A stretch of DNA of 64,000 nucleotides from an uncultured Actinomycetes bacterium (GTDB lineage: Bacteria; Actinomycetota; Thermoleophilia; RBG-16-64-13), in contig CAWJDT010000005.1 of NCBI GenBank assembly GCA_963841735.1, positions 190,944 to 254,943 on the forward strand, read 5' to 3'. The notes under the pieces are model-generated. The model saw only the letters and a list, made by a program, of their open reading frames with translations, was not told the DNA's origin and did no database searches. Made by a program: the position numbers and the translations under genes. This document shows positions 22,100 to 47,448 of the stretch, piece by piece. Positions within the stretch are counted from its first letter, which is position 1; each line of letters begins with the position of its first letter.

Positions 22100-22330
22100 G
22101 TCCCCCCCCTTCGGCGGCCGGCCTCGATGACCGTTCCGCGTCTTTATTTCCGCACAGGCAAAACTAACGGCTAGCACATTATCAAACCGCACCGCCTGCA
22201 GTCTAGCCTCCGCAATCCGCAGGAGTTTCGGTGGGCGCGTGGCGATGTGGGGCACGGCCGCGCCCACCGTAAGCCCGGTCCAGGCGATCACCTGCTTAAA
22301 CACGTCCGGAACTCCGGCGGACGCCGGCCC

Positions 22331-23221: not shown

Positions 23222-23255
23222 GGCGCGTCCCCCGATGGGTCAGGCCCCTCGGCCG

Positions 23256-24259: not shown

Positions 24260-24410
24260 GTCTCCCCAATCTGGTGAACACGTCTATCCCGCTCGCAACC
24301 TAGGCGTCTGAGTTTATCAGGAGAGACGGGCGGGGCACACGGGCCGGAAGGTTTCCCGTCGGTGCACATGCTTGACCCCGGCCCCCTCCCGGCTACCGTC
24401 GAGGCCGGCG

Positions 24411-26461
24411 ATGAGCACCGTGACCCCAGAGATCGAAGCCCGCGCCCGCGCTCTGCGCGACCGGCTCACCCCGGCCGAGAAGCTCGGGATGCTCTCCGGC
24501 GGCGTGGACTTCTACCGCTTCATGGCCGGGATGCCCGGCACCGAAGCCGGCGTGGAGGCGGCCGCCGAGGCGGGCCGCCGGCCCACGCCGGCGGCCGCTG
24601 TCGAGCGCCTGGGACTGGCGGGCTCAGCTTCGCCGACGGACCGCGGGGCATCGCGGTGGGAGTGTCCACCTGCTTTCCGGCGCCCATGGCCCGGGCGGCC
24701 ACCTTCGACTACGACCTGGAGGAACGGGTGGGCGAAGCCATGGGCCGGGAGGCACGGGCCCACGGGGTGAACATCGTGGCGGCGCCGTGCATCAACCTGC
24801 TCCGCCACCCCGGCTGGGGCCGCGCCCAGGAGACCTATGGCGACGACCCCACCCACGTAGGCGAGATGGGCGCCGCGCTGACGCGAGGCCTGCAGAAACA
24901 CGTGATGGCCTGCGTCAAGCACTTCGCCTGTAACAGCATAGAGAACACCCGCTTCCGCCTTGATGTGCGCGTGGACCCCGAGGTGCTGGACACCGTCTAC
25001 CTGCCCCACTTCGAGCGGGTGGTGCGGGAGGGCGTGGCTTCGGTGATGTCGGCCTACAACTCGGTCAACGGCGAGTGGTGCTCCGAGAACCGCTATCTGC
25101 TCACCACGGTGCTCAAGGAGCGCTGGGGCTTCGATGGCTTCGTGATGAGCGACTTCGTCTTTGCCCTCCACGATGGGCCCAAGGCCGTCAACGCCGGCCT
25201 GGACCTGGAGATGCCGTCTCCCCTCTTTTTGGGCAAGCGGCTGGCGCGCGCGGTGGAACATGGCTTGGTGCCCTGGGAGCGCATCGACGACGCCGTGTTG
25301 CGGCTGATAAGGCAGCAGTTGCGGTTTCGCGCCGCCGGGGGCGGCGGCGGATGCGTGGGAGCACCGGGACTTGGTGCCGCCACCGCGGGGAGCACCACCG
25401 CCCTGGGGAGCGCCGCCACCGGAGTGCGCCGCCGAGCCATGTGGAATCGCCGCCCCGACCCCGGGCTACGGCCCCGAGGTAGCACCGACCTCGGCTACGC
25501 GAAGTGAGCCTGTGCCGCACACCGGGCTCTCGCTCGCGAGGTAGCCACCAGGGCCATCGTGCTGCTGCGTAACGAACCGGTGGATGGGGAGCCGGTGCTG
25601 CCGCTGCGCGCGGGCGCGGCGGACGTGGGCTCCGCCACGGGCGAGGGCGCCACCCTAGGCACCACAGACGGCGCCGCCGCGCAGCTGCGGCGCGTGGCGG
25701 TCATTGGCAGGTTGGCCGCCATACCCAACACCGGCGACCACGGTTCGAGCGATGTCGTGGCTCCCTATGTGGTCACCCCGCTCGAAGGACTGCGGGCGGC
25801 ACTGGAGCCAATGGGAGTGCAGGTCGTCCACGACCCGGGCGACGACCCGGCCCGGGCCGCGCGACTGGCGGCGGAGGCCGACGCAGCCCTGGTGGTCGTC
25901 GGCTACGACTACCGCGACGAGGGCGAGCTGATAGCCGCTCCCCTGCCCGCTGGGTTCCTGCGCAAACTCCCCCGGCCGCCGCTCAAGAGCCTACCTGGAG
26001 TGGTGGCTAAGGCAGCCAAAGCGGCGTGGGTCATGGTAGCCGCCAGGCTCCTCGGCAGAGGCGGCCTGGCCGGCGGCGGCGACCGCAGGAGCCTCACCCT
26101 CCCCGATTCCGACGAGAATCTGCTCTTGGCCGTCGCGGCCGCCAATCCCAGGACCGTGACAGTGCTCATGTGCGGCTCGGCCGTGCTGATGGAGCGCTGG
26201 CGGCAGAAGGTGCCTGCCATCCTCATCCTCTGGTATCCGGGCATGGAGGGCGGTCACGCCCTGGCCGACATCGTGCTGGGCCGCCGCTCACCCACCGGAC
26301 GTCTCCCCTTCACCATCCCCACCAGCTCGGAGCACCTGCCCTTCTTCGACCCCGACGCGACCAGCATCGAGTACGGCCCGCTCCACGGGCAGGCCCTGCT
26401 GGACCATCTGGGGGTGCCGGCCGCCTATCCGTTCGGGTTCGGGCTGACCTACAGCGACTGA
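24411..26461 (+). pseudogene. glycoside hydrolase family 3 (beta-glucosidase-like) gene disrupted by a 1-nt frameshift (~24620-24630) and an in-frame TGA (25505-25507)
   Basis: True N-terminus MSTVTPEIEARARALRDRLTPAEKLGMLSGG is in frame 0 (ORF 24372..24770). The N-terminal domain continues in frame 2 (LSFADGPRGIAVGVS...GFVMSDF). After TGA the same frame continues with AHRALAREVATRAIVLLRNEP and the full GH3 C-terminal domain. Confidence 0.65.
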
Positions 26462-27424: not shown

Positions 27425-27483
27425 GCTAGGTGGCGCGCACCGGCGCTCTCCGGCCCGCGGGGCCCTCGCTAGGTGGCGCGCAC
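27425..27483. repeat. direct duplication of the 3' end/stop region of the cluster-A esterase-RCC1 gene (GCTAGGTGGCGCGCAC x2, 43-nt spacing)
   Basis: Copies at 27425-27440 and 27468-27483; the second contains the TAG stop and the last codons (..PVRAT*). Confidence 0.5.
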
Positions 27484-29853
27484 AGGCCCCAGACGCCCGT
27501 TCCTGGCATTGCCCCATGCCCAGATGGTGCCGTCCCTGCCGAGGGCGAAGTTGTGATTGAAGCCGGTGTAGATCTCCCGGATGTCCGTCAGACCCAAGGC
27601 GCGGACCGGCGACCTGCTGCCGTCCAGGCTGCCTGCCCCCAGGACTCCGCTTCCCATCTGCTTGTTGTAACCCCAGGTCCACACACTGCCGTCTGCCTTC
27701 AGAGCTACCGTATGGTTCATTCCCGCCGTGATCTTCGCCACGCCTTCCAGCCCATCCACCCTCCTGGGATGCACAACAGTCGTAAAGAACTCCGGATTGG
27801 CATGGGGATCGTTTGGATCGATCTCAGGCATATATTCGCCGAGGCCCAGCTCTCCGTGACGGTTGAGTCCCCAGCTATGCACGGTGCCGTCGCTCTTTAG
27901 CACCGCCGTGAAGCAGCGGCCTTCCGCCGCGCCATTGACCCCGGTCAGGTAGCCGGTGGCATCGGACTTGTCCAGCGACTTGAAGGGCAGTGTGGTACCC
28001 GGACCGTGGCTAGCCACTCCCTTCCCTATCTGCCCGTATTCCCCGTCGCCCCAGCAGCGGATGGTGCCATCGCTCTTCACCGCGACAACGGTGCGCACAC
28101 CGGCCTCCAGATGCACCACATCCGTCAGAAATCCGCTCGCGTCATCGGGATCTTTGACCTGGCTGGGCTCGTGACTCCTAGTGTAGGTGCCGTTGCCAAA
28201 TTGCCCGTTGATGTTGGCCCCCCAGGCCCACACGGTGCCGTCCTGCTTCAGCGCGACGCCGTAGCTGTCGCCGGCATCGATCTGCCTCACCGTGGAGAGA
28301 CCCCCGATCACAACCGGCGCCGTATGGCGCTTTGTGGTGTCGGGGTCCCCCATCTGGCCGCAGTTGTTGCTCCCCCAGCCGTAGACGCTTCCATCTGCCG
28401 TGAGGGCGAGGCTGAAGTTGTTTCCCGCAGCGACCTGCACGATATCTTTCAGACCCTCTACCTGCACGGGAGTGTTCTGATCGGAGAACGCGCCGCACCT
28501 GCCGTTGCCCACCTGGCCGGTGCAGTTGAAGCCCCAGGCGAACACGCGCCCCTCCTCCAGCAAGGCCACGTTATGCCGGTTGCCGGCGGCGATCTGCTTG
28601 ACCTGCGACCCGTCGAACCCCAAGTTGACCATCACAGGCACGTGTTCGGCGGGCATGTTGTATTTGTAGGCCTCGGCCCAGGGCTCCGGATTCACATGAG
28701 AGAACAGCCAGTCGCGCACAGCCTCGTTGGTAATGGCGGGCCGCGCACCGAATTCGTGAGCCCAGCCGCCCAAGATGCTGCCCTCCCGATACAACGTGTG
28801 CAGAGTGTGCCCGCCTTTGGCCAGTTGCTCCTTGGCCATGCGGACGGCCGCCTCTCCACGCAACGACCCGTCCCAAACAGCCCGGTTGATGACGGCGCCG
28901 GCGCTCTCCAGCGTCTCCATGTTGTCAACGTTGCCGGGCATCGCCTTGTCGTCGTCCTCGCCGTGAAAGACCCAGAGGTTGTGGTCTTTCAGCACCTCGA
29001 GTTCCTCATAGTTGCTCTGGCCCGCAAAAACGATGCTGGCGGCGAACATCCTGTAGTACCGTTTGCTCGCTTCCCAGGACGACATCCCCCCCATGGAGAA
29101 GCCGGTGCAGTAGAGGCGGGTGCGATCCACGCTGTACTGCTCGAATAGGGAGAACATCAGCCCGCAGACGGCATCGAACACGCCCGTCATCTCATATGTG
29201 TCGGGATCGATCCAGTCGCCGTCGATGGGGCATTGGGGAACGAAGACGAAGCAAGGATGCTTCTTCTGCTCTTCTTCCGTCGCCCAGATCACACCGTTCA
29301 AGGAACACAGCATGCTCTTGAGGTTGTTGTTGCCCTTCTCGCCGCCGCCGTGCCAGTACAGAACGAACGGGTACTTCTTGTCCGGCCGGTAGTCCCTGGG
29401 CACGAACAATGAGTAGGCGACGGTGGTACCGTTCACGGGGTCCCGGTACGAATCCTTCTTGAACTGGTCGAACTCCAGGTTTGCGCCGTCCTGCACCTCG
29501 ACATGCTCCATCCAGGGACTGCAGACCCCTTCGTCGGCATAGACGACATCTTTGAGCTGACGCACGTCATAGGCGATTCTGACTCTCTCGTTCACCTCCC
29601 AGTGGAAAGGGAGCGTGGTGGCCGCCTTGTCGGACGGATCCATCTCCACGATCACGTAGCGTCCGTCATGCCCGCGCCCGTCTGGGTCCTGCGCCGCCTG
29701 CTCATTCGCGTAGGCCCTCAGGATCACCCTGCTGCTCACCGAGAACGATTCGGCGCCCAGGTCGGCGTTGCATACCGGCTGCGGGTACTCGATCGCGATG
29801 GCGACATTCTTTTCGCCGTCTTCCATCACTCGGTGGATAGCAAGGATATTCAT
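27469..29853 (-). CDS. fusion protein: N-terminal ~150-aa unknown domain + alpha/beta-hydrolase (esterase, GxSxG) + C-terminal RCC1-repeat beta-propeller; no signal peptide (cluster A)
   Basis: Probable start MNILAIH at 29853 behind AGGAGA; the listed ORF extends to 29877. Esterase motifs LYWHGGGE and GFSMGG. Multiple RCC1 repeats (GxNxxGQ(V/L/M)G(N/D)G...PV). Terminal gene of the ABC operon. Confidence 0.8.
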   Translation of the reverse strand: MNILAIHRVMEDGEKNVAIAIEYPQPVCNADLGAESFSVSSRVILRAYANEQAAQDPDGRGHDGRYVIVEMDPSDKAATTLPFHWEVNERVRIAYDVRQLKDVVYADEGVCSPWMEHVEVQDGANLEFDQFKKDSYRDPVNGTTVAYSLFVPRDYRPDKKYPFVLYWHGGGEKGNNNLKSMLCSLNGVIWATEEEQKKHPCFVFVPQCPIDGDWIDPDTYEMTGVFDAVCGLMFSLFEQYSVDRTRLYCTGFSMGGMSSWEASKRYYRMFAASIVFAGQSNYEELEVLKDHNLWVFHGEDDDKAMPGNVDNMETLESAGAVINRAVWDGSLRGEAAVRMAKEQLAKGGHTLHTLYREGSILGGWAHEFGARPAITNEAVRDWLFSHVNPEPWAEAYKYNMPAEHVPVMVNLGFDGSQVKQIAAGNRHNVALLEEGRVFAWGFNCTGQVGNGRCGAFSDQNTPVQVEGLKDIVQVAAGNNFSLALTADGSVYGWGSNNCGQMGDPDTTKRHTAPVVIGGLSTVRQIDAGDSYGVALKQDGTVWAWGANINGQFGNGTYTRSHEPSQVKDPDDASGFLTDVVHLEAGVRTVVAVKSDGTIRCWGDGEYGQIGKGVASHGPGTTLPFKSLDKSDATGYLTGVNGAAEGRCFTAVLKSDGTVHSWGLNRHGELGLGEYMPEIDPNDPHANPEFFTTVVHPRRVDGLEGVAKITAGMNHTVALKADGSVWTWGYNKQMGSGVLGAGSLDGSRSPVRALGLTDIREIYTGFNHNFALGRDGTIWAWGNARNGRLGPVRAT

Positions 29854-29869: not shown

Positions 29870-30901
29870 CTATTCATCGGTTCTGCTTGCGTCTGTGTGG
29901 CGAGGTTCTTCGCCCCCTGAGTGGCGCCAACCCGCGGGCCGGGAACCCGGCACGTTGATCTCGCTCACCCGGCAGCACAGCACGTGGTGATGAGGTTCCA
30001 CTTCCTCCATCACCTGACGCTCTTGACATCTCTCTTGCGCGTAGGGGCACCTGGCCGCGAACCGGCAGCCCGGCTTGGGGTTGATGGGTGACGTGAGTTC
30101 GCCCTTGAGTTCGACTCGCTTCATGGGATGGTCGATATCGATGGAGGGCACCGCGGAGAGCAGGGCCTTGGTGTAGGGATGCATCGGCCTGGCGAAGAGG
30201 CCTTCTGAAGTGCTGGTCTCAACGAGTTGGCCGAGGTACATGACGCAGATGTCGTCGGATATGTGGCGTACGACCGACAAGTCATGAGTCACGAACATAT
30301 AGGTGAGGCCAACCTCGTCCTGTAGGTCCATGAGGAGGTTGAGTATCTGAGCCTGTATGGACACGTCCAAGGAGGACACGGGCTCGTCGCACACCACAAA
30401 AGCTGGGTTGAGGGCGATAGCGCGGGCTACACCGACCCTCTGCCGTCTACCACCGTCCAGTTCGTGCGGATATGCGTTGCGCAGGCGCTGGTCGATACCA
30501 ACCAAGTCCATGAGCCTGGTGACCTCGGTTGCCAACCGTCCCCTGCCAAAGCGCCCGGACAGCTTGAGGGGCTGTCTGATGATCTCCTCCACACTCCGTC
30601 TGGGGTTGAGCGAGGAGTAGGGATCCTGAAAGATGATCTGCATATCCGACCGTAGGCCGCGCAGCCCGCGCCCCTTAGCCTCCGTGACGTCCTTGCCCTC
30701 AAAGAGTATCTGGCCGTCGGTTGAATGCTGGAGGTGGATCATGGTGCGCCCAAGGGTGGACTTGCCGCAGCCCGACTCACCTACTACGCCCATGGTCCGA
30801 CCCTTTTCTATGGAGAAGGAGACGTCGTCCACAGCGTGCAGTAGGCCGGTGCCCACCCGGAAGTACTTCTTGAGGTTACGGACTTCGATCAAGGCCGCCA
30901 T
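29870..30901 (-). CDS. ABC transporter ATP-binding protein (DppF/OppF-like) (cluster A)
   Basis: Walker [13 protein letters not shown] signature, Walker [12 protein letters not shown] and the C-terminal oligopeptide-transporter Cys-rich extension. Confidence 0.85.
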   Translation of the reverse strand: MAALIEVRNLKKYFRVGTGLLHAVDDVSFSIEKGRTMGVVGESGCGKSTLGRTMIHLQHSTDGQILFEGKDVTEAKGRGLRGLRSDMQIIFQDPYSSLNPRRSVEEIIRQPLKLSGRFGRGRLATEVTRLMDLVGIDQRLRNAYPHELDGGRRQRVGVARAIALNPAFVVCDEPVSSLDVSIQAQILNLLMDLQDEVGLTYMFVTHDLSVVRHISDDICVMYLGQLVETSTSEGLFARPMHPYTKALLSAVPSIDIDHPMKRVELKGELTSPINPKPGCRFAARCPYAQERCQERQVMEEVEPHHHVLCCRVSEINVPGSRPAGWRHSGGEEPRHTDASRTDE

Positions 30902-30902: not shown

Positions 30903-31889
30903 TCATTCCTCCGAAAGCGCCGGGTAGAGACAGCGGCAGCGATGTCCGGGCGCGATGTCGGCCAAGGGGATACTCTCGCCTCTGCACTTGTCTGTCGCTC
31001 GCGGACAGCGAGGATTGAACCGGCAACCGTCCGGCAGGTTCGAGGGATCAGGCATAAGACCCTCGATGGGCTGAAGTCTTCTGGAATCCTTGGACATGCT
31101 GGGCAGCGAGGCGAACAGGCCCAGCGTGTAAGGATGCGCCGCGCGCTTGAAGATGTCGCGCTTGCTGCCGTGCTCGATGATCTCGCCCGCGTAGATAACC
31201 GCTACGTCGTCGCAGACCTCGGCGACTACACCCAGATTGTGGGTGATCATTATCATGGCGGTGTTGAGCCTGTCCCTGAGGTTGCGGATCATCTCGAGCA
31301 CCTGGGCTTGGATGGTCACGTCCAGCGCGGTGGTGGGCTCGTCGGCGATGAGCAATTCAGGATTGCAGGCCAGCGCCTCGGCTATGACCACCCGTTGTCT
31401 CATGCCGCCCGAGAACTCGTGGGGGAACTGCTTGAACCGCTCCGCCGGAATACCGACCATCTCCAGCATCTCTGTGGCGCGTCGCTCGGCGTCCACGCGG
31501 CTGACCGCGTTGTGCAGGCGGACGGCCTCGGCAATCTGTTCGCCCACAGTCATGAGGGGGTTGAGCGCCGTCATAGGGTCCTGGAAGATCATCGATACCT
31601 TCTCGCCTCTGATCCTGCGCATGTCCTTCTCGGGCAGGCCCAGAAGGTCCTCGCCGTCCAGGATGATCTCGCCGTCGGCGACCCGAGCCGTAAACTCGGG
31701 GAGTATTCGCATGATGGTCTTCGCAGTCGTGGTCTTGCCGGCGCCCGTCTCTCCTACCAGCCCAAGGGTCTTTCCACGCACCAGGTCGAAAGACACGTCG
31801 TTCACCGCGTGTACGATGCTCTTGCCCGAGCGGTACTCGACCTTCAGGTTCCTGACCGACAAAAACACGTCGTTACCGTTGTTCACCAA
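30903..31889 (-). CDS. ABC transporter ATP-binding protein (DppD/OppD-like) (cluster A)
   Basis: Walker [10 protein letters not shown], signature SGGMRQRV, Walker [12 protein letters not shown]. Confidence 0.85.
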   Translation of the reverse strand: MVNNGNDVFLSVRNLKVEYRSGKSIVHAVNDVSFDLVRGKTLGLVGETGAGKTTTAKTIMRILPEFTARVADGEIILDGEDLLGLPEKDMRRIRGEKVSMIFQDPMTALNPLMTVGEQIAEAVRLHNAVSRVDAERRATEMLEMVGIPAERFKQFPHEFSGGMRQRVVIAEALACNPELLIADEPTTALDVTIQAQVLEMIRNLRDRLNTAMIMITHNLGVVAEVCDDVAVIYAGEIIEHGSKRDIFKRAAHPYTLGLFASLPSMSKDSRRLQPIEGLMPDPSNLPDGCRFNPRCPRATDKCRGESIPLADIAPGHRCRCLYPALSEE

Positions 31890-31902: not shown

Positions 31903-32766
31903 TCATCGCTTCATCTTGGGGTCAAGCGCATCACGTAGGCCGTCCCCGAAGATGCTCACGGCGAGAACCGTGATCACGATGGCAAGACCTGGGAAGAGGA
32001 TGATGTGCGGATGAGCAAGGACGCTGGCGATACCTTCAGTGACCATGGCGCCCCATTCGGGTGTCGGGGGGCGTACGCCGAAGCCTAGGAAGCTCAGCGA
32101 TGCGGCCACCAGAATGGTGCCCCCTATGGCCGTGGTGGTGTGCACTATCAGAGGCGACAAGGTGTTGGGCAGGATCTCCGAGAACATGATGCGCATCTTG
32201 CCGCTGTTTATCGACTCGGCCGCTTCTACGTATTCCCTGGTCCGTTCTCCCAAGATCTGTCCACGGGTGATCCTGGTTGCCGGTACGATGCCTCCCACGG
32301 TGAGGGCGATGACGGTCTTCCAGAAGCCGCCCCCCAAGACGGCCGCGATGAGGATAGCTATGAGGATGCCCGGAATAGCCTGCAAGACGTCCATGAAGCG
32401 CATGATGCTGTTGTCGATCCATCTGCCGAAGTAACCCGCGAAGGCGCCAAAGACCACTCCGATGATGGTGCTGAGCAGCGCACCGGCGAGCCCGAGAACT
32501 AGGGAGTACCGGCCGCCGTAGAGCAACCGGGTGAGGATGTCGCGTCCCTGCTGGTCGGTGCCGCAGAGGTGCTGCCAAGAGGGGCCCAGGTTCGCGTTGT
32601 TGAGATCCATCTTGGCGGGGTCGTAGTGGGTGAGCAACGGAGCCAGCAAGCACAGCAACACGATAATGAACAGAAGAGCCAAACCGGCGACGGCGAGCTT
32701 GCTGTGGAATACACGTATGAGGGTCTGCAGGGCCAGACTGCGTCTCTGTGGATGGCTGGTGGTCAT
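31903..32766 (-). CDS. ABC transporter permease (DppC/OppC-like) (cluster A)
   Basis: 6 TM; BPD_transp_1 EAA-like loop YVEAAESINSGKMRIMFSEILPN. Overlaps the upstream permease by 4 nt. Confidence 0.85.
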   Translation of the reverse strand: MTTSHPQRRSLALQTLIRVFHSKLAVAGLALLFIIVLLCLLAPLLTHYDPAKMDLNNANLGPSWQHLCGTDQQGRDILTRLLYGGRYSLVLGLAGALLSTIIGVVFGAFAGYFGRWIDNSIMRFMDVLQAIPGILIAILIAAVLGGGFWKTVIALTVGGIVPATRITRGQILGERTREYVEAAESINSGKMRIMFSEILPNTLSPLIVHTTTAIGGTILVAASLSFLGFGVRPPTPEWGAMVTEGIASVLAHPHIILFPGLAIVITVLAVSIFGDGLRDALDPKMKR

Positions 32767-33710
32767 ACCCTCGCGTCTCCCTTGTACTGAGCCTTTATGC
32801 GAGGATCGACGAACCCATAGGCTAGGTCGGTAAGTAGCATGACAACCGTCGTGATGAGCGACAGAAACACGACCACGCCTTGGACTATGGGGTAGTCACG
32901 GTTCATGATGGCGTTCATCAGCAGCAGCCCCAGTCCAGGGATGGCGAACACCATCTCGATGATTATCAGACTGGTAAGGACCACGGCGAACGAGAAGCCG
33001 GTGACGGTGATCACTGGTATCAGCGCGTTAGGCAGCACGTGCCGGTAGATGACGCGTCGCTCCGAAGCCCCCTTGGCGCGAGCGCTCTGGACGTAGTCGG
33101 CCCTGAAGGTCTCCAGCACGCTGGAGCGCATCTGGCGGGTCACAATGCCTATGCCCCCAAGCGAGGCGGCGATGATGGGTATCACGTAGTTCTTCCAGTT
33201 GCCTATGCCGAAGCCCGGCAGCCAGTGCAACTTGACGGCAAACAGCACCACCAGCTCAACGGCCAGCCAATAGCCGGGGACCGCGAACCCAAGCATGGCG
33301 ATGAACAGACTCAGGCCATCACGAGTCTTGCCTTGGTGGGTGGCGGCCATGACACCCAGCGGAACGCCGACGACGGTGCCTAGGAGCACGCTGATGAATC
33401 CGATCAGCATAGTCCGAGGCAGCCTTTCCAGGATCTGCCCGGTCACAGGCAGACTGCGCTGATAGGAGACCCCGAGGTCGAAGTGGAGAAAGGCCCGGTT
33501 CAAGAAGTGGCCGAGCCGAACGATGTACGTTTCGTCCAACCCCAGTTGGTGACGCTTGGCCTCCAAGTCCGCTGCTTTTGCGCCGGTGCCCAGGATGAGT
33601 GTTGCGGGATCACCAGGCACGAAGTACATGATGGTGAAGATTATGATGGCCGAGAAGAAGACCACGAAGATCATCATCAGCAGCCGTTTCAATATGTATT
33701 TCGCCATCAT
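32763..33710 (-). CDS. ABC transporter permease (DppB/OppB-like) (cluster A)
   Basis: 6 TM; conserved loop YVQSARAKGASERRVIYRHVLPNALIPV. Confidence 0.85.
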   Translation of the reverse strand: MMAKYILKRLLMMIFVVFFSAIIIFTIMYFVPGDPATLILGTGAKAADLEAKRHQLGLDETYIVRLGHFLNRAFLHFDLGVSYQRSLPVTGQILERLPRTMLIGFISVLLGTVVGVPLGVMAATHQGKTRDGLSLFIAMLGFAVPGYWLAVELVVLFAVKLHWLPGFGIGNWKNYVIPIIAASLGGIGIVTRQMRSSVLETFRADYVQSARAKGASERRVIYRHVLPNALIPVITVTGFSFAVVLTSLIIIEMVFAIPGLGLLLMNAIMNRDYPIVQGVVVFLSLITTVVMLLTDLAYGFVDPRIKAQYKGDARV

Positions 33711-33817: not shown

Positions 33818-35455
33818 CTACTTGGCCTCGTACGAGCAGGCGTTCGGGATGAGCCACAACTGATCGCTCAGCACGAAGTTGGTGCACCAGCTCGGATACG
33901 CGGCATTGATGTAGTTGGCGCTGACGCCGTAGGCGTAAGCGTTGGCGTTGATGTAGTCCTGCGCGGCGTTGACCGTGTCTTGGCTGTGAGTGCTGACGGT
34001 CATGGCAGCTTTGACAAGGGTCTGGAGCTGGTCATCGGTGACCATGTTCATAGGCTTGCCGGTCGGTCCCCACTCGGGAGTGAGGTTCATGAACGTGCTG
34101 GCCAGGAAGTCGGTTGAGAAAGTGGGGAATTGCTGCAGGTCCCACTGAGTCGCATCCCCGGCCACCGGCATGTAGCTGGCGCCGTTGACGGCGGTCAGTT
34201 GCGCGTCGATGACGCCGGTCTCGTTGAGGAAGCCCTGGACCAACTCCATGAGGCCCTTGAAGGTAGGCTGCTCCATGACCAGCATCTTCAACTGCAGCTT
34301 GTTGGTCTCGTTGTAGCCGGCTTCAGCAAGCAGGGCTTTGGCCTTGGCAACATCGTAGTTGAAGTAGTCGGCCGTAGCCCAAGCCTTGTTGTAGTCGGAG
34401 TAGTGGTCCGCGCCCATGGCTTTGGACAACGTCGCATCGTCGCCGAACATCCGCTTCACTATGGCCGCGCTGTCGATGGCGCAGAAGACGGCCTCGCGCA
34501 CCTTCGGGTCGCTCATCTTGCTGGTGGGATCGCAGTTCGGGTAGAGCACATGGTTCATGGCCTCGCCGAAACTCTTGACCATGGAAGTGCCGGACGCGGT
34601 CACTTCGGCCACGTTGTCCAGGGCTATGTTCTGAGCGAAATCGATCTGGCCGCTCTTAAGAGCTATTGCCATCTGATTGAGGTCCATGATGATGAAGAAG
34701 TTGATCGTCTTGACGTTAGCCTGTTCGACCGGAGTCTTGAGGGCCTCGTCGGTCTTCCAATAGGTGTCGGTCTTCTCGACGGTCAACTGCGAGCCGGAGG
34801 TGTACTTGGTGACCTTGTAGGGGGCCGTGGTCACCGGATCGACGATCATGTGGTCTGCGCTCGCGGTCCAGGCCTTCTCTGTAACGAAGTACAGACCGGT
34901 GAGTACGTCGGTCACATTGCTCAGATACATGTCATGAGCAAAGGTGATCTTGACGTTCAGGTCGTCGATCGCCTCGGCACTCGCGATGCTGCCGGCCTTC
35001 TGCTGGGCGGACTCGACGCACTTGGCGATGCCGAAGGCCACGTCCGAAGCCTTGAAGGGATTACCGGCCTGGTCGACGATGTTGTTGTAAAGGGTCACGG
35101 TGATCGTCTTGGAGTCGTCAACCTTGTACGACTCCATGAGGATGCCCTTGAAGGTGCCGTCGGGCATCAGATAGGCCAGGGGCTGCACCCAGATGGGATG
35201 CGTCGTTCCGTTCCTGTGGCCAAGGGTGGTGTAGGGGTCCAGATCGGTCGGGTCGCCGTCGATACCGACGTTGACAACATCCGGGACGTAAGCCGCGGCC
35301 ACGGTAGTCGGGGTTTCTCCCCCGGTAGTCGAGGTTTCGCCACCGGTCGTCGGGGTGACCGCGGACGAGGTCGTGGTGGTGGTGTCGTTGCCGCACCCGG
35401 CTACCATGCCAAGGATCACGGTCAGAACAAGGAGAACGAGAACGATTCTTTTCAT
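33818..35455 (-). CDS. ABC transporter substrate-binding lipoprotein, family 5 (DppA/OppA-like) (cluster A)
   Basis: Lipoprotein signal (LVLLVLTVILGMVAGC), Thr-rich linker, ~500-aa SBP_bac_5-type body. First gene of the operon. Confidence 0.85.
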   Translation of the reverse strand: MKRIVLVLLVLTVILGMVAGCGNDTTTTTSSAVTPTTGGETSTTGGETPTTVAAAYVPDVVNVGIDGDPTDLDPYTTLGHRNGTTHPIWVQPLAYLMPDGTFKGILMESYKVDDSKTITVTLYNNIVDQAGNPFKASDVAFGIAKCVESAQQKAGSIASAEAIDDLNVKITFAHDMYLSNVTDVLTGLYFVTEKAWTASADHMIVDPVTTAPYKVTKYTSGSQLTVEKTDTYWKTDEALKTPVEQANVKTINFFIIMDLNQMAIALKSGQIDFAQNIALDNVAEVTASGTSMVKSFGEAMNHVLYPNCDPTSKMSDPKVREAVFCAIDSAAIVKRMFGDDATLSKAMGADHYSDYNKAWATADYFNYDVAKAKALLAEAGYNETNKLQLKMLVMEQPTFKGLMELVQGFLNETGVIDAQLTAVNGASYMPVAGDATQWDLQQFPTFSTDFLASTFMNLTPEWGPTGKPMNMVTDDQLQTLVKAAMTVSTHSQDTVNAAQDYINANAYAYGVSANYINAAYPSWCTNFVLSDQLWLIPNACSYEAK

Positions 35456-35546
35456 CTATTCAACCCTCCTGCTTGTGGAACATGTGGCACGGTGAACCGT
35501 AGCAACCGCCATCTCCCTATGGAAATTCGATTCCGGCATGGATGCT

Positions 35547-35559
35547 TTCCAGAATGGAA
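35547..35559. promoter_or_regulatory. T-N11-A palindrome TTCCAGAATGGAA (candidate LysR-type operator) 92 nt upstream of the cluster-A SBP start
   Basis: Perfect dyad TTCCA-N3-TGGAA. A paralogous copy lies at the identical offset before the cluster-B SBP. Confidence 0.3.
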
Positions 35560-35858: not shown

Positions 35859-38228
35859 AGGCCCCAAGCGCCCGTTCCTGGCATTCCCCCAGGCCCAGAT
35901 GGTCCCGTCCTTGCCGATGGCGAAATTGTGGTTAAGGCCGGTGGAGATCTCCCTGATGTCGGTCAGGCCCAGGACGCGGACCGGCGAGTTGCTCCCATCC
36001 AGGTTGCCCGCCCCCAAGGCCCCGCTGCTCATCAGCTTGCTGCAGCCCCAGCTCCATACACTGCCGTCTTCCTTCAAAGCGACCGTGTGGTTCATCCCGG
36101 CTGCGATCCCAGCGACACCTTCCAGCCCGTCGATCATCCTGGGATGCACCACCGTCGTCAAGAAGTCCGAGTTCATGTGGGGATCAGACACATCTATCTC
36201 CGGCTGGTAGTCGCCCAGGCCAAGTTCCCCATGGCGGTGCAGCCCCCAACTGCACACGGTGCCGTCGTTCTTCAGAACCGCCGTGAAACAGCGTCCTTCC
36301 GCGACGCGGCTGACGTCGGCCAGGTGTCCGGTCGAATCGGACCTGTCCAGGGCCTTGAAGGGCAGCTTTGTGCCCGGACCGTGCATGGCGAGTCCCTTGC
36401 CTAGCTGTCCGTATTCCCCGTCACCCCAGCACCGGATGGTGCCGTCGGCCTTCAATGCGACTACAGTCCGCACGCCGGCTTCGACATGGACGACATCCGA
36501 AAGAAATCCTCCAGCGTCATCGGGGTCCATTACCCGGGCGGGCGCATGGTTTCTCGCAAAGGTCCCGTTCCCGAGCTGTCCGTTGACGTTGGCGCCCCAG
36601 GCACATACGGTGCCGTTCCGCATCAGGGCGACGGCATAGCTGTCTCCGGCCTCGATCTGGGCTGCCTCGGACAGACCATCGATCCGGACCGGCGCCGTAT
36701 AGCGCTTCGTTGTGTCGGCATCCCCCAGTTGGCCGCTACTGTTGCTGCCCCAACCGTAGACGCTCCCATCGGCCGCCAGGGCGAGACTGAAGTTGTTCCC
36801 CGCCGCGACCTGGACGATGTCTTGCAGGCCCTCCACCAGCACGGGAGTCTCCTGGCCGGAGAATGCGCCGCACTTGCCGTTGCCCACCTGGCCGGTGCAG
36901 TTGAAGCCCCAAGCAAACACGCGCCCGTCCTCGAGAAGGGCCACGTTGTGCCGGTTGCCGGCGGCGATCTGTTTGACCTCTGACCCGCCGAACCCTAGGT
37001 CGACCATGACAGGCACATATTCGGCAGGCACCGTATAGCCGTAGGACTCGAGTGAAGGGGTCGGATTCGCGTTGGAGAACAGCCAGTCCCGAACGGTCTC
37101 GTTGGTAACGGCAGGCCGCCATCCGAACTGATGCACCCAATCGCCCGAGACACTGCCTTCCCTGTAGAGGGTGTGCAGAATATGCCCGCCTCCTGCCAGT
37201 TGCTGCTTCGCCATTTGAACGGCGGCCGGCCCACGGAGAGATCCGTCCCACACCGCGCGATTGACGAAAGCGCCGACACTCTCCAGCGTCTCCAAATTGT
37301 CCACGTTGCCGGGCCCGGCCTTGTCGTCGTCCTCCCCGTGGAAGACCCAGAGGTTGCTGTCTTTCAGCACCTCGAGCTCCTCGTAGTTGCTCTGCCCCGC
37401 CAAGATGAGGGTGGCGGCGAACAACCCGCAGTACCGCTTACTGACTTCCCAGGCCGCCATTCCGCCCATGGAGAAACCCGTGCAATACACCCGGGTAAGA
37501 TCCACGCTGCACTTGTCGAGGAGAGAGACCATCAGCCCACAAAAGGCATCGAGCACGCCGGTCGTCTCGTACGTGTCCGGATCGATCCAGTCGCCCTCGC
37601 TTGGACATTGCGGCACGAGGACAAAGCAGGGGTGTTTCTTCTGCTCTTCCTCCGTGGCCCAGATCACGGCGTTCATCGTGCTGAGCAGGCTCTTGAGGTT
37701 GTTGTCACCCTTTTCGCCGCCACCATGCCAGTAGACCACCAACGGGTACTTCTCGCCGGGTTTGCAGTCTTTGGGAACAAAGAGCGCGTAGGAGAGGGCG
37801 GAGCCGTTGCTCGGGTCACGATAGAGGCCCGGCGTGAACCGGTCGAACTCAACATCGGCGCCGTTCTGGACCTCGACGTTCTCCGTCCAGGGCGCGCAGA
37901 TGTTCCCATCCGTATAGACGACGTCCTTGAGCTGGCTGACCTGGTACGGGATCTTGCGTCTCTCCTTCACCACCCACTCAAGGGGAAGGGTTCCCGCCGA
38001 GGCGTCCGCGGGATCCATCTCCACCACCACATAGCGGCCGTCGCACCCGATCCCATCGCCAGCCTGAGCCGCGTGGTCATTTGCATACACCTTCAGAATG
38101 ATCCTGCTGCTGACGGAGAAGCCATCGATGTCGAGCGTCGCGTTGAGTACCGGCTTGGGGTACTCCAACACAAGAGCGACATTACGTTCGCCGTCTTCCG
38201 TCACGCTGTGTATCGCAAGGATGTTCAT
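35844..38228 (-). CDS. paralogous unknown-domain + alpha/beta-hydrolase + RCC1-repeat fusion protein (cluster B)
   Basis: Probable start MNILAIH at 38228, directly after the upstream ATPase stop; the listed ORF extends to 38369. Roughly 75-80% identical to the cluster-A protein over its full length (estimated by eye, not computed). Motifs VVYWHGGGE, GFSMGG and RCC1 repeats are conserved. Confidence 0.8.
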   Translation of the reverse strand: MNILAIHSVTEDGERNVALVLEYPKPVLNATLDIDGFSVSSRIILKVYANDHAAQAGDGIGCDGRYVVVEMDPADASAGTLPLEWVVKERRKIPYQVSQLKDVVYTDGNICAPWTENVEVQNGADVEFDRFTPGLYRDPSNGSALSYALFVPKDCKPGEKYPLVVYWHGGGEKGDNNLKSLLSTMNAVIWATEEEQKKHPCFVLVPQCPSEGDWIDPDTYETTGVLDAFCGLMVSLLDKCSVDLTRVYCTGFSMGGMAAWEVSKRYCGLFAATLILAGQSNYEELEVLKDSNLWVFHGEDDDKAGPGNVDNLETLESVGAFVNRAVWDGSLRGPAAVQMAKQQLAGGGHILHTLYREGSVSGDWVHQFGWRPAVTNETVRDWLFSNANPTPSLESYGYTVPAEYVPVMVDLGFGGSEVKQIAAGNRHNVALLEDGRVFAWGFNCTGQVGNGKCGAFSGQETPVLVEGLQDIVQVAAGNNFSLALAADGSVYGWGSNSSGQLGDADTTKRYTAPVRIDGLSEAAQIEAGDSYAVALMRNGTVCAWGANVNGQLGNGTFARNHAPARVMDPDDAGGFLSDVVHVEAGVRTVVALKADGTIRCWGDGEYGQLGKGLAMHGPGTKLPFKALDRSDSTGHLADVSRVAEGRCFTAVLKNDGTVCSWGLHRHGELGLGDYQPEIDVSDPHMNSDFLTTVVHPRMIDGLEGVAGIAAGMNHTVALKEDGSVWSWGCSKLMSSGALGAGNLDGSNSPVRVLGLTDIREISTGLNHNFAIGKDGTIWAWGNARNGRLGPVRAT

Positions 38229-39202
38229 GATCCGCACCCCACCGACGCAACCGCATTTATCTCCCTCGCCCTGCAGCACAACGCGAAATGCTGGGGCTCT
38301 ATCTCCTCCAGCGCTTGGGGACTTTGGCACCTCTCCTCCACGTACGGGCATCTGGCCGCAAACCGGCAACCCGGCTTGGGATTGATGGGCGACGTGAGCT
38401 CGCCCGTCAGCTCCACCCGCTTCATGGGATGGTCGATGTCAATGGACGGGATCGCCGAGAGCAGAGCCTTTGTATACGGATGCAACGGCTTGTTGAACAG
38501 CTCCTTGGAGGGGCTGGTCTCAACCATCTGGCCCAAATACATAACGCAGATGTTGTCGGAGATATGGCGGACCACCGATAGGTCGTGCGTCACGAACATG
38601 TACGTCAGTCCAAACTCGTCCTGCAGATCCATAAGCAGGTTCAGGATCTGCGCCTGAATGGAGACATCCAGGGACGACACGGGTTCGTCGCAGACCACAA
38701 ACGCGGGATTGAGAGCGATAGCGCGGGCGACGCCAACCCTCTGCCGTCTCCCCCCATCCAGCTCATGGGGGTACGAGTTGCGCAGACGTTGGTCGATGCC
38801 GACCAAGTCCATCAGCCTCGTTACCTCCTTCTCGAGCTCCGCCCTCTTGAAGCGTCCCGAAAGCTTGAGAGGCTGCTGAATGATCTCCCCGATGCTTCGC
38901 CTGGGATTCAGTGAGGAATAGGGGTCCTGGAAGATGATCTGCATGTTGGTACGAAGCCGGTGCAGCTCCTTGCCCTCCACGTGCGTGACATCTTCACCGT
39001 CGAAGAGTATCTGACCGCCCGTGGGCTGCTGCAGATGGATGATCGTGCGTCCGAGCGTGGACTTGCCGCAGCCCGATTCACCGACTACACCCATCGTCCT
39101 GCCCTTCTCAACAGAGAACGTGACGTCATCGACGGCATGCAGCAGGCCGTGCGCCACCTTGAAGTACTTCTTTAGATTTCGGACTTCGACGCTGGCCGTC
39201 AT
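38225..39202 (-). CDS. ABC transporter ATP-binding protein (DppF/OppF-like) (cluster B)
   Basis: Paralog of 29870..30901 (GESGCGKST...[11 protein letters not shown]). Confidence 0.85.
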
Positions 39203-40182
39203 GCTTCTGGACTCCTAACGTTGCAGCAGCGACAGAAATGCCCCGGGCCGATCTCCGTCAACGGGACGCTCTCGCTTCCGCAAGAGTCCGTCGCGAGGGG
39301 ACAACGGGGATGAAACCGGCAGCCCTCCGGCAGATTGGATGGATCGGGCGGAAGTCCCAAGATCGGATGGAGCCTGTCCGAGTCGTCCCGCAGGTTGGGC
39401 AGCGACCCGAAAAGTCCAACGGTATACGGGTGCGACGCATGCTTGAAGATGTCCCTCTTGCTGCCCTTTTCGATGATCTCGCCCGCATAGACGACCGCCA
39501 CGTCGTCACAGACCTCCGCGACCACGCCCAGATCGTGTGTGATCATGATCATGGCTGTGTTGAGGCGGTTTCGAAGGTCGCGGATCGTCTCCAGCACCTG
39601 AGCCTGGATGGTCACATCCAGCGCAGTGGTAGGTTCGTCCGCAATCAGGAGCTCCGGATTGCAGGCCAGCGCCTCGGCGATGACGACGCGCTGCTTCATA
39701 CCACCGGAAAACTCATGAGGAAACTGCTTGAAGCGCTCCGCGGGAATGCCGACCATCTCCAGCATCTCGACGGCGCGTTCTGTCGCATCGACCGCGCCTA
39801 TCTTGTTGTGGAGTCGGACGGCTTCCGCTATCTGGGCACCGACCGTCATCAGCGGGTTGAGAGCCGTCATGGGGTCCTGAAAGATCATGGAGACCTTTTC
39901 GCCCCGGATCTTGCGCATGGCCTTCTCGCGTACCTTCAAGAGGTTCTCGCCGTCCAGCACGACTTCTCCCCCTGTCACCCGGGCCGAGAACTCGGGCAGG
40001 ACCCGCATGATCGTCTTTGCGATCGTTGTCTTTCCGGCTCCCGTTTCGCCGACCAGGCCCAGAGTTCTCCCTCTCGAGAGGTCGAGGGACACCCCGTTGA
40101 CCGCATGGATGGTGACCTTCCCCGACCGGTATTCCACAACCAGGTCTCTTACCGACAGGAATACGTCGTTGCCGATACTCAC
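39199..40182 (-). CDS. ABC transporter ATP-binding protein (DppD/OppD-like) (cluster B)
   Basis: Paralog of 30903..31889. Confidence 0.85.
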
Positions 40183-43748: not shown

Positions 43749-43838
43749 ACTATCGACCCTCCTGTTTGGAAACTTGTAGCATCATGAACCGTACCAACCG
43801 GCTTCTTCATATGCGAGTTCAAATGTGGCACCAATAGT

Positions 43839-43851
43839 TTCCATAGTGGAA
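43839..43851. promoter_or_regulatory. T-N11-A palindrome TTCCATAGTGGAA (candidate LysR-type operator) 91 nt upstream of the cluster-B SBP start
   Basis: Dyad TTCCA-N3-TGGAA at the same offset as in cluster A. The adjacent 5'UTR segment (atgaaccgtaccaaccg) is also conserved. Confidence 0.3.
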
Positions 43852-44797: not shown

Positions 44798-44998
44798 CCA
44801 GCCACCCCGGTCAACCGACACAAAGGGGGATGTGCGCGAAACAACGCCGCTTCCCCGACTCCCTTGGGCAGCATCATATCAATTACGGGCGTGGTACTCG
44901 GTCGCATCCACAATGCGGCCGCGACCGCTCCCTGCGTACCGGCCTCGCGGTCGCCAAGCGTGTCCGCAGCGGCGAGGCTTCGGCCCGAAACAAGTCTG

Positions 44999-46012: not shown

Positions 46013-46064
46013 CTTCTAGGGCGCCGGGACTTCGCTTTTCGGCGGCCTTCTAGGGCGCCGGGAC
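46013..46064. repeat. direct duplication CTTCTAGGGCGCCGGGAC x2 (34-nt spacing) spanning the stop of the lipoprotein gene
   Basis: Copies at 46013-46030 and 46047-46064; again the stop-containing 3' end is repeated just downstream. Confidence 0.5.
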
Positions 46065-47414: not shown

Positions 47415-47448
47415 CCCCCTTGTGGCTCCCACCTGCCGACTGGACGCC

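Follow-up and report, generated by a model that had tools for sequence, protein, structure and literature searches.

Two paralogous genes in the window analyzed here, a 64-kb stretch of DNA from an uncultured Actinomycetes bacterium, encode proteins in which a predicted esterase of the EstA type is joined to a predicted seven-bladed RCC1 propeller. Each gene closes an operon for an Opp-type ABC importer, and we consider it probable (about 0.6) that the fusion protein is a cytoplasmic esterase acting on the cargo of this importer. The fusion genes and their parts are located as follows:

27469..29853, minus strand: gene A, EstA-type esterase-RCC1 fusion, 794 aa, terminal gene of operon A (Pfam EstA_Ig_like plus RCC1/WD40_RLD)
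29464..29853, minus strand: gene A, EstA Ig-like N-terminal domain, aa 1-130 (PF18435)
28669..29463, minus strand: gene A, alpha/beta-hydrolase core, aa 131-395 (alignment to 3DOH, Foldseek TMt 0.86)
27472..28668, minus strand: gene A, linker and seven-bladed RCC1-like propeller, aa 396-794
29344..29352, minus strand: gene A, H168-G-G oxyanion motif
29095..29097, minus strand: gene A, Ser253 codon
28951..28953, minus strand: gene A, Asp301 codon
28756..28758, minus strand: gene A, His366 codon
35844..38228, minus strand: gene B, paralogous EstA-RCC1 fusion, 794 aa, last gene of operon B
37470..37472, minus strand: gene B, Ser253 codon
37326..37328, minus strand: gene B, Asp301 codon
37131..37133, minus strand: gene B, His366 codon

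The fusion of an alpha/beta-hydrolase with RCC1 repeats, proposed in a preliminary description of this DNA, was recovered in both paralogs by domain and structure matches. Gene B, which had been named there as a paralog, encodes a product of equal length that is 74% identical to that of gene A and aligns with zero indels. Both genes are under purifying selection, with dN/dS values of 0.16–0.24 in each of the three domains. The ATG of gene A lies 12 nt downstream of AGGAG and 16 nt past the stop of the preceding ATPase gene (29870..30901), and not 17 nt as first described. The ATG of gene B overlaps the stop of its preceding ATPase gene as ATGA. Promoter and terminator scans gave results no better than those obtained with shuffled sequences.

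Both operons contain the complete Opp-type set, i.e., an SBP_bac_5 lipoprotein, two permeases, and two ATPases with oligo_HPY, and the terminal position reported for the fusion gene was confirmed for A and B. Two LysR genes lie upstream of the importer operons. The transporter and regulator features are:

29870..30901, minus strand: operon A, ATPase 2 (OppF/DppF-like), ABC_tran plus oligo_HPY
30903..31889, minus strand: operon A, ATPase 1 (OppD-like), ABC_tran plus oligo_HPY
31903..32766, minus strand: operon A, permease (OppC-like), OppC_N plus BPD_transp_1
32763..33710, minus strand: operon A, permease (OppB/NikB-like), BPD_transp_1_N plus BPD_transp_1
33818..35455, minus strand: operon A, solute-binding lipoprotein (family 5; SBP A), SBP_bac_5
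35545..35559, minus strand: putative LysR box TTCCATTCTGGAAAG, T-N11-A dyad, ~90 nt upstream of SBP A
38225..39202, minus strand: operon B, ATPase 2, ABC_tran plus oligo_HPY, 81% identical to its operon A counterpart
39199..40182, minus strand: operon B, ATPase 1
40199..41056, minus strand: operon B, permease (OppC-like)
41060..42004, minus strand: operon B, permease (OppB-like)
42120..43748, minus strand: operon B, solute-binding lipoprotein (SBP B), SBP_bac_5, lipobox, 57% identical to SBP A
43837..43851, minus strand: putative LysR box TTCCACTATGGAAAC, upstream of SBP B
43928..44821, minus strand: LysR-family regulator 1, HTH_1 plus LysR_substrate
44999..45868, minus strand: LysR-family regulator 2, 74% identical to regulator 1

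The whole unit, comprising LysR, the five transporter genes, and the esterase, is a tandem duplication. Within the fusion proteins, identity between the paralogs is highest in the propeller (78%) and lower in the Ig domain (64%); the solute-binding proteins are 57% identical. This greatest divergence in the binding protein suggests, at the level of sequence, that the two units may serve two related cargoes. The putative T-N11-A box, of the form TTCCA-N3-TGGAA in operons A and B, is conserved upstream of both operons and of the related loci L001 and L031, and only two matches to it were found in the whole window, compared to 0.06 expected. A 567-aa ORF with no Pfam domain (46050..47753) was considered as a conserved partner and rejected; it resembles a gene of locus L027 in length and clusters with no gene.

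In SBP A, a T/G/P-rich linker comes after the lipobox VAGC, and the nearest PDB entries to this protein are AgaA (6HLX) and GsiB. Both binding proteins are nearest to the Nik/Gsi/opine branch, with every NCBIfam equivalog score below its cutoff; for the NikA, GsiB, OppA, DppA, and CntA equivalogs, the best score was ~100 bits against cutoffs of 393–1005. In operon A, ATPase 2 matched best the NCBIfam dipeptide ABC ATPase subfamily (381 bits, under the cutoff of 408), and the OppB/NikB-like permease scored 297 bits with Opp2B, under the cutoff of 350. The peptide cargo proposed in the preliminary description was not borne out, as the binding proteins lie below all equivalog cutoffs and the accessory genes described below point elsewhere.

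The EstA-RCC1 fusion is rare. An exhaustive representative search gave ~35 clusters at 90% identity and 6–7 at 50%, inside the very large EstA family, and few matches came from an indexed search for homologs of the esterase half. The hosts belong to uncultured Actinomycetota and to Clostridia of the gut or rumen; the cultured Lachnospiraceae isolate MGYG-HGUT-00127 has the locus that corresponds to L003/L007. For the window itself, the taxonomy read from its sequences rests on the sister locus, in an "uncultured Actinomycetes" MAG, and on Amt relatives with the labels Thermoleophilia, Coriobacteriia, or Actinomycetota. In 12 of 14 related loci from two phyla, at fusion identities from 73% down to 35%, the fusion occurs together with the same LysR and/or ABC genes (ABC genes in 11, LysR in 10), and the link between enzyme and transporter is therefore more than a local coincidence. 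Of the 13 clustered sources, the window included, 10 have a LysR homolog with the fusion, and so does L031. The ATPases are 67–85% identical across loci. The binding proteins of distant loci share 26–28% identity, and therefore the cargo may differ between clades. A literature search covering RCC1, esterase, ABC transporter, and EstA/TM0033 returned no publication on the EstA-RCC1 architecture.

The N-terminal part of the fusion (aa 1–390) is homologous over its full length to EstA of Thermotoga maritima (TM0033; PDB 3DOH/3DOI), an esterase reportedly described by Levisson et al. in 2009 (J Mol Biol 385:949). This part matches 3DOH with a TM score of 0.86 and ~30–40% identity. The phmmer alignment to 3DOH (E 5.9e-54) extends across residues 3–306 plus the C-terminal helix region, and Foldseek matched the whole EstA chain (E 5e-33, TMt 0.86). 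The first ~150 residues had been taken as unknown, but ~130 of them form the EstA_Ig_like domain known from T. maritima EstA. PF18435 was matched at 76.3 bits in gene A (aa 4–109) and at 68.1 bits in the other paralog (cutoff 26.7), and the domain of gene A aligns to 3DOH residues 9–111. The oxyanion-like HGGGE motif (in YWHGGGEKG), the GFSMGG elbow, and the downstream Asp and His candidates noted earlier were all found. Residues H168, G170, S253, D301, and H366 are unchanged in all 28 family members, and the Ser-Asp-His triad, the completeness of which had been proposed as a check, is intact in both paralogs. In the alignment to 3DOH, S253 and D301 fall on catalytic positions of EstA, which we take to be Ser286 and Asp334. 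The fusion thus shares with EstA the order of a PF18435 Ig-like domain and an alpha/beta-hydrolase, the GxSMG elbow, HG(G/A)G, and the Asp and His. It differs from EstA, a protein of ~395 aa without a propeller, by ~400 additional residues of RCC1 and by its conserved context of LysR and Opp-type ABC genes. Judged by these matches, the fusion is most likely a serine carboxylesterase of the EstA type.

Of the two subfamilies offered in the preliminary description, a PHB-depolymerase-like esterase and an S9 peptidase, neither was matched above cutoff. In the fusion proteins, Peptidase_S9 (PF00326) reached only 14.2 bits, far under the cutoff of 22.6, and the PHB-depolymerase and scl-PHA profiles TIGR01840 and NF050058 gave 18 and 16 bits against 107.85, and 40 and 52 bits against 150. 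These S9 scores bear on an unlikely alternative, namely that the protein is a cytoplasmic peptidase or amidase similar to prolyl oligopeptidase (POP), which would cleave imported oligopeptides or N-acyl or depsipeptide bonds and use the propeller as a size filter. An Opp/Dpp-type transporter with oligo_HPY ATPases would suit such an enzyme, as would the weak Peptidase_S9 and Dpp5 matches and the label "predicted peptidase" that relatives carry at JGI. Furthermore, a standalone EstA gene in L003 adjoins ceramidase-like amidases and an MBL gene, and in L025, L027, and L030 an FMN-dependent alpha-hydroxy-acid dehydrogenase, which suits depsipeptide hydroxy acids, lies beside the fusion. However, besides the low S9 score, the nearest solved homolog is an esterase, the binding proteins stay under the OppA and DppA equivalog scores, and the propeller, being RCC1-type and C-terminal, is unlike that of POP. 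The resemblance to the S9 prolyl oligopeptidases lies in the architecture, as these are cytoplasmic enzymes for small imported molecules with a serine alpha/beta-hydrolase rigidly joined to a seven-bladed propeller. With a non-homologous propeller and a core below the S9 cutoff in the fusion, a propeller acting as gate or filter would be a possible functional analogy.

According to the structural model, aa 400–794 are a UVR8-like, seven-bladed RCC1 propeller. WD40_RLD was matched with an E value of 5e-82 (277 bits, cutoff 150), together with seven RCC1_2 stretches (Pfam), and the propeller matched UVR8/HERC2/RCC1 at E 1e-47 and UVR8 in Foldseek with a TMt of 0.86. In the AF2 model, the propeller has 28 beta-strands with pLDDT above 90. 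The seven RCC1_2 stretches and these 28 strands agree with the seven-blade-type repeats that had been read from the sequence. For the whole gene A product, pLDDT was 93.7 and pTM 0.91, with an ordered linker; this pTM indicates that the predicted propeller is rigidly packed on the esterase. The conserved face of the propeller comprises the turns bearing R426, N478, R587, and R646/C647 and the WGxNxxG loops bearing E605/Y606, H666, and M733. The earlier statement that RCC1 propellers are rare in bacteria was overstated, as one search alone yielded hundreds of RCC1 proteins from bacteria. Most of these are large, multidomain, and extracellular-looking by domain content.

Seven blades built from RCC1 repeats are also found in UVR8, the HERC2 RLDs, and RCC1 (PF00415/PF13540/PF25390). 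In contrast to these, the propeller of the fusion is bacterial, apparently cytoplasmic, and joined to an enzyme, and the fusion implies neither a GTPase partner, as for RCC1, nor the photoreceptor tryptophans of UVR8. BLIP-II of Streptomyces (1JTD, 3QHY), recovered by Foldseek with a TMt of 0.74–0.78, is likewise a bacterial seven-bladed RCC1-like propeller, which uses one face to cover a serine hydrolase at its active site. However, BLIP-II is a separate inhibitor protein, small and secreted, whereas the propeller of the fusion is covalently joined to the hydrolase. Because the propeller is the best conserved part of the two fusion proteins, a constant partner or moiety is more in line with it than a determinant specific to each paralog. 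This evidence leans against the specificity module of the preliminary description, and the propeller is probably not what sets paralog-specific specificity.

Alternatively, the propeller might be a docking module that tethers the enzyme to the importer ATPases or mediates UVR8-like homo-oligomerization, with hydrolysis coupled to or regulated by transport instead of ligand recognition. The RCC1 domain and the ATPases (78% and 81%) are the best conserved parts of the paralogous operons, the ATPases are conserved across loci as given above, and eukaryotic RCC1-like domains bind proteins. In addition, the conserved R426, R587, and R646 lie in the turn that presumably corresponds to that of the salt-bridging Arg at the UVR8 dimer interface. 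Nevertheless, we regard docking as improbable: at several loci, the ABC genes are either separated from the fusion by several other genes or transcribed divergently from it, and in the model (pTM 0.91) the propeller already packs on the esterase.

The nature of the cargo is hinted at by genes next to the fusion in related loci. In L031, a GH3 gene directly downstream of the fusion matches 5VQD (E 1.6e-144), a beta-glucoside phosphorylase (PMC8950772), and an ortholog of this gene is also present in L025. A VdcC-like UbiD, a hydroxyaryl-acid decarboxylase, lies with UbiX beside the fusion in L025 (there with an additional LpdD) and L030, two closely related loci that together amount to about one observation. 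A DAPG_hydrolase-family gene lies within or next to the ABC operon in six loci, and a PF00756 esterase resembling feruloyl or tributyrin esterases does so in five. A phloroglucinol reading was kept weak, as no relative of the DAPG_hydrolase neighbor has a solved structure and its match to PhlG is faint. Among standalone EstA relatives, the closest one in the indexed search (33% identity) has as neighbors a tannase and the OMA tautomerase and CHA aldolase of the gallate pathway; the tannase/feruloyl esterase family PF07519 itself had no Pfam match in the fusion and appeared only as this neighbor. For the Dictyoglomus ortholog of TM_0033, the annotation is intracellular feruloyl esterase. Operons A and B of the window contain none of these accessory polyphenol or glucoside genes. 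A GH3 gene does lie nearby (24362..26461, plus strand), on the opposite strand and broken by an in-frame TGA; it is not orthologous to the phosphorylase-like GH3 genes of L031 and L025 and was rejected as support for a cargo.

Taken together, the neighboring genes give a weak indication that the cargo consists of acylated or phenolic glucosides. An acyl-glucoside, e.g., a galloyl, hydroxycinnamoyl, or acetyl ester of a beta-glucoside, is the leading candidate for the cargo class, at low certainty. Against it, the binding proteins and permeases are closer to Nik/Gsi/opine systems than to the Opp systems known to bind sugars, with all matches under cutoff. The siderophore-like cargo of the preliminary description is less favored, as the accessory genes of related loci weakly suggest the glucosides instead. 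More generally, an esterase for a non-glycoside ester, such as a metallophore, an opine-like compound, or 3-hydroxyalkanoate oligomers, seems quite remote. The closest matches of the binding proteins and permeases are Nik, CntA, AgaA, and GsiB, the hydrolase core has sub-threshold similarity to the catalytic domains of PHA depolymerases, and PF00756 of the five loci is also the Pfam family of siderophore esterases. All these matches, however, are under curated cutoffs, siderophore, metal, and PHA genes occur in none of the loci, and the PF00756 neighbors resemble feruloyl or tributyrin esterases.

The absence of a signal peptide, noted earlier for gene A, extends to all 28 fusion members, none of which has a hydrophobic N-terminus, signal peptide, or transmembrane segment. 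Their maximum Kyte-Doolittle value in a 12-residue window was 0.2–1.8, compared to 3.7 for the signal of the SBP lipoprotein, and every member begins directly at the first strand of the Ig domain. T. maritima EstA has an N-terminal signal sequence, which is absent from the fusion. The fusion esterase is probably cytoplasmic, as far as the sequence allows this to be read. An exported or surface-exposed enzyme that acts outside the cell before the importer is very improbable, because, although many standalone EstA relatives have N-terminal extensions of 30–60 aa and bacterial RCC1 proteins look mostly extracellular, 0 of the 28 fusion members carries an export signal or transmembrane segment and all start at Ig strand 1. 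The preliminary view of an intracellular esterase acting on an imported substrate is supported in fold, triad, lack of a signal peptide, and synteny, and unsupported for the peptide or siderophore cargo.

For a cytoplasmic esterase acting on imported cargo, the following mechanism can be proposed. LysR would control the co-production of the enzyme and the Opp/Nik-family ABC importer, and the importer would bring an ester-bearing small molecule into the cell. The esterase, with Ser253, Asp301, and His366, would then strip the ester-linked acyl group from the imported molecule. The propeller would form a fixed platform on the esterase for binding or gating, either recognizing a constant part of the cargo or restricting access to the active site, as in hydrolases of the prolyl-oligopeptidase type; we put forward this binding or gating role tentatively, at somewhat less than even odds. 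The Geobacillus esterase Axe2 is an intracellular carbohydrate esterase coupled to ABC import of oligosaccharides. By analogy, import of an acylated compound followed by de-esterification in the cytoplasm, as for the acylated oligomers of Axe2, may apply to the fusion, although enzymes of the Axe2 type belong to other esterase families (SGNH, CE) and lack a propeller. In a more far-reaching version, the fusions would be a class of self-compartmentalized cytoplasmic esterases. An RCC1 propeller from the extracellular repertoire would cap the active site and admit only the plant acylated phenolic glucosides (galloyl- or hydroxycinnamoyl-glucose) delivered by the importer, as a polyphenol-ester module common to gut Clostridia and soil Actinomycetota. 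We consider this version rather unlikely.

What is new here is the addition of an RCC1 propeller to a known EstA-type esterase, with transporter and regulator neighbors that have been kept. For the EstA family, a crystal structure is known, but to our knowledge not the natural substrate. If the proposed reading is true, it would give the EstA esterase family a physiological setting and, for the first time, assign a function to a cytoplasmic bacterial RCC1 propeller that is fused to an enzyme. LysR, the Opp-type importer, and the esterase would then constitute a compact conserved module in gut and rumen Clostridia and environmental Actinomycetota. Such a module may act on plant esters or polyphenol glycosides, the transporters of which are poorly known, and the diverged tandem duplication offers a natural pair for mapping the determinants of specificity.

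The two paralogous genes of the window each encode an EstA-family esterase extended by an RCC1 propeller, and this fusion is part of a conserved LysR/Opp-type module. An ORF search of the window located both as long reading frames:

27469-29853, minus strand: gene A, EstA-RCC1 fusion
35844-38228, minus strand: gene B, EstA-RCC1 fusion

The preliminary description had recognized these ORFs and their architecture, which we confirm. It had placed the starts 17 nt after, or abutting, the last ATPase gene. The start codon of gene A is the ATG at 29853, which has an AGGAG 12 nt upstream and follows the stop of the upstream ATPase gene by 16 nt; the ATG of gene B at 38228 overlaps the stop of its upstream ATPase gene as ATGA. 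The ORF finder also offered longer reading frames, extended upstream by 8 and 47 codons; neither extension is hydrophobic, and that of gene B runs into the ATPase gene. The products are 794 aa each and align at 74% identity with zero indels.

Pfam assigned EstA_Ig_like (PF18435) to aa 4-110, far over the cutoff, so the N-terminal ~150 aa, previously regarded as unknown, contain a known domain. Residues 140-315 gave only weak matches to generic alpha/beta-hydrolase families (DLH, Esterase_PHB, S9), and residues 400-794 matched RCC1, RCC1_2, and WD40_RLD very strongly. In a PDB sequence search, residues 3-306 aligned to the Thermotoga maritima esterase EstA (3DOH/3DOI, E 5.9e-54) and residues 341-385 did so more weakly, so that the alignment spans the whole EstA chain. 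The C-terminal half aligned to UVR8, HERC2, and RCC1 (E down to 1.5e-47). An AlphaFold2 model based on 28 family members had very high confidence (mean pLDDT 93.7, pTM 0.91) and an ordered linker, with 28 strands between residues 402 and 782 forming seven four-stranded blades. In Foldseek searches, the whole EstA chain superposed on the N-terminal half and UVR8 on the C-terminal half (TMt 0.86 each). BLIP-II was among the structural matches, and no solved structure covering both halves was found. The high pTM for a three-domain chain of 794 aa points to a predicted rigid packing of the propeller against the esterase, not to a flexible tether.

Aligning 28 full-length fusions (35-82% identity to gene A) showed residues H168, G170, G251, S253, M254, G255, D301, K303, and H366 to be invariant. 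S253 and D301 match the EstA positions that we take to be Ser286 and Asp334, and H366 is at most one residue away from the His of EstA in the weakly aligned segment of the PDB sequence search. The candidate triad S253-D301-H366 is therefore retained in both paralogs. Purifying selection acts on both, in all three domains (dN/dS 0.24, 0.16, and 0.17; dS ~0.86). Neither a signal peptide nor a hydrophobic N-terminus was present in any family member examined; in all members the chain begins directly at the first Ig-domain strand, which argues against secretion. Unlike the fusions, both solute-binding proteins (SBPs) of the window carry classical lipoprotein signals. The earlier view of a cytoplasmic esterase coupled to an ABC importer appears, as judged from sequence, correct in outline.

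Genes A and B are each the last gene of a complete Opp/Nik-type operon, which comprises a family-5 SBP lipoprotein, OppB- and OppC-type permeases, and two ATPases with oligo_HPY domains. Two LysR genes lie upstream on the same strand. Therefore, the entire LysR-importer-fusion unit is duplicated in tandem, and the divergence between the copies is uneven across components.

Identity between the two copies of the unit
SBP: 57%
Permeases: about 70%
LysR: 74%
ATPases: 81%
Fusion, whole: 74%
Fusion, Ig domain: 64%
Fusion, hydrolase: 73%
Fusion, RCC1: 78%

The dyad TTCCA-N3-TGGAA lies ~90 nt upstream of each SBP gene and has the T-N11-A form typical of LysR boxes. These putative boxes are its only occurrences in the window (0.06 expected), and the dyad is kept in the orthologous loci L001 and L031. 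The term "oligopeptide" importer holds for the transporter family and not for the substrate, because the SBPs and permeases score under every NCBIfam equivalog cutoff and are nearest the Nik, Gsi, and opine branch (closest PDB entry AgaA, 6HLX).

The analysis covered 14 related loci: 12 entered an all-against-all comparison with the window, and L030 and L031 were inspected separately. ABC genes are found with the fusion in 11 of the 14 loci, LysR in 10, and one or both in 12. In L030 neither is within reach of the fusion, and the L011 contig stops just past it. Gene order in L001, L031, and L002 is the same as in the window; in Clostridia loci, the fusion is divergent from the ABC genes or a few genes apart. 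Across loci, identity is 67-85% for the ATPases and falls to 35% for the fusion and 26-28% for the SBP. Transporter core and esterase travel together across loci, with the binding protein evolving fast. Recurrent neighbors are a small membrane protein of ~212 aa (seven loci), a DAPG_hydrolase-family protein (six), a PF00756 esterase whose solved relatives include ferulic-acid esterases (five), additional weak alpha/beta-hydrolases, and MATE exporters.

Individual loci showed further features. In L001, the closest related locus, the unit lies among genes for carbamoyl-phosphate synthase, glutamate synthase, and glutamine synthetase (nitrogen assimilation); the window has an Amt ammonium transporter ~20 kb from the unit, possibly by coincidence. 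L003/L007 (Lachnospiraceae MGYG-HGUT-00127; L003 2382-10391) hold the fusion and a standalone EstA (393 aa) in one cluster. The latter directly follows the ABC ATPases, and two ceramidase-like proteins, an MBL-fold hydrolase, and a FUSC_2 membrane protein are encoded between the two. The fusion ortholog of L031, a JGI contig, has a mis-called start codon (724 aa) and a long Gly/Arg/Pro-rich low-complexity insertion in its Ig-like domain (about 9590-10100), which may be an assembly artefact or real. L028 (202-4778) has a standalone EstA-like esterase in what looks like a gallate or tannin catabolic operon, together with a LigK-type CHA aldolase, a 4-oxalomesaconate tautomerase, and a tannase-family protein.

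The full-length architecture forms about 35 clusters at 90% identity, all of them from MAGs, metagenomes, or isolates, annotated, where at all, as "RCC1 family protein/predicted peptidase". In an exhaustive search with the esterase half, the EstA-like family proved very large (10,155 representatives at E ≤ 1e-3, 210 at E ≤ 1e-30), and only 6-7 representatives at 50% identity reached the fusion length. A species-level genome scan found hosts in Lachnospiraceae (human gut isolate MGYG-HGUT-00127), Oscillospiraceae, Ruminococcus bicirculans, and Pseudobutyrivibrio, and the closest relative (73%) in one "uncultured Actinomycetes" MAG. The proteins nearest to the window's Amt ammonium transporter carry the labels Thermoleophilia, Coriobacteriia, or Actinomycetota. 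The fusion family thus spans two phyla. In four proteins of 1,700-2,660 aa (P0132, P0133, P0135, and P0141), the esterase half matches at 3-7 separate places each, suggesting several EstA-like modules in tandem. RCC1 propellers were held to be rare in bacteria in the preliminary description, but RCC1 repeats were common in bacteria in a sequence search, mostly in large proteins with domains suggesting an extracellular location. The unusual part is the apparently cytoplasmic, enzyme-fused propeller.

Other features of the window were as follows:

9577-10467, minus strand: AbiEii nucleotidyltransferase toxin gene
10460-11314, minus strand: overlapping 284-aa ORF, no Pfam match, possibly the AbiEi antitoxin
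18154-19053, plus strand: transposase (rve integrase core and HTH domains) between MFS/HD-domain and cell-wall protein genes
20036-23858, minus strand: cell-envelope group (755-aa protein with three CWB2 cell-wall-binding repeats, YkuD L,D-transpeptidase, CHRD-domain protein)
24362-26461, plus strand: GH3 glycosidase (N- and C-terminal domains) as two same-frame ORFs
46050-47753, minus strand: 567-aa ORF just upstream of the LysR pair, no Pfam or NCBIfam match, not conserved in the related loci compared
52532-54682, minus strand: 716-aa ORF, no Pfam match
56123-57370, plus strand: 415-aa ORF, no Pfam match
57367-63981, minus strand: apparent defence island with a GajA-like OLD-family ATPase (AAA_15 and TOPRIM; 57367-59256), a SMODS nucleotidyltransferase (59422-60303), and an N6/N4 DNA methylase (62065-63981)

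GC content falls to 0.58 at 16-18 kb. CWB2 repeats are best known from Clostridia; the window belongs to Actinomycetota.

All clues to the importer cargo come from related loci. In L031, from the clade of the window (71% identity), a GH3 gene directly 3' of the fusion on the same strand encodes a full-length homolog (E 1.6e-144) of BglP (5VQD), a GH3 beta-glucoside phosphorylase (PMC8950772). L025 has an ortholog of this GH3 gene, with 44% identity, close to its fusion. L025 and L030 encode a VdcC-like UbiD and a UbiX-like flavoprotein, with LpdD also in L025, a set that makes a hydroxyaryl-acid decarboxylase. Other genes present in both encode an FMN-dependent alpha-hydroxy-acid dehydrogenase, GFO/IDH/MocA, and YdjC, and L030 has PfkB in addition. 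The closest standalone EstA relative (33% identity; indexed search) shares an operon with a tannase-family protein and two enzymes of the gallate pathway, 4-oxalomesaconate tautomerase and CHA aldolase, both over equivalog cutoffs. The Dictyoglomus ortholog of TM_0033 (EstA) is annotated as an intracellular feruloyl esterase. Together, the GH3 phosphorylase, the UbiD set, the tannase/gallate neighbors, and the feruloyl esterase annotation point to an acylated, possibly phenolic, beta-glucoside as the best single guess. This guess is weak, because the GH3-phosphorylase, UbiD, and gallate-type extras are absent from the window's own operons, L025 and L030 are closely related to each other, and the window GH3 near the operons belongs to another subfamily, lies on the opposite strand, and has an in-frame TGA that interrupts it. 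This codon (25505-25507; …DLGYAK*ACAAHRALA…) could reflect a pseudogene, a sequencing error, or readthrough.

A role of the propeller as a paralog-specific specificity module, as first proposed, is doubtful from the sequence comparison: it should then diverge with the SBP, yet it is the most conserved part of the fusion between paralogs. In the 28-fusion alignment, residues conserved in the family but differing from the generic RCC1 repeat form two clusters, one in strand 2-3 turns (R426, N478, R587, R646, and C647) and one in WGxNxxG loops (E605, Y606, H666, and M733). The up-down topology of a four-stranded blade puts these turns and loops on the same face, which in UVR8 forms the dimer interface. 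We infer that this conserved face is functional and would either pack against the esterase or bind a partner or a constant moiety. In its design, the fusion resembles prolyl oligopeptidases, which combine a hydrolase with a gating propeller, and BLIP-II, whose RCC1-like propeller covers a serine-hydrolase active site; membership tests placed the fusion in neither family. The searchable literature yielded no description of the EstA-RCC1 architecture. The fusion module is a clean, testable, and phylogenetically conserved unit rather than a categorically new system.
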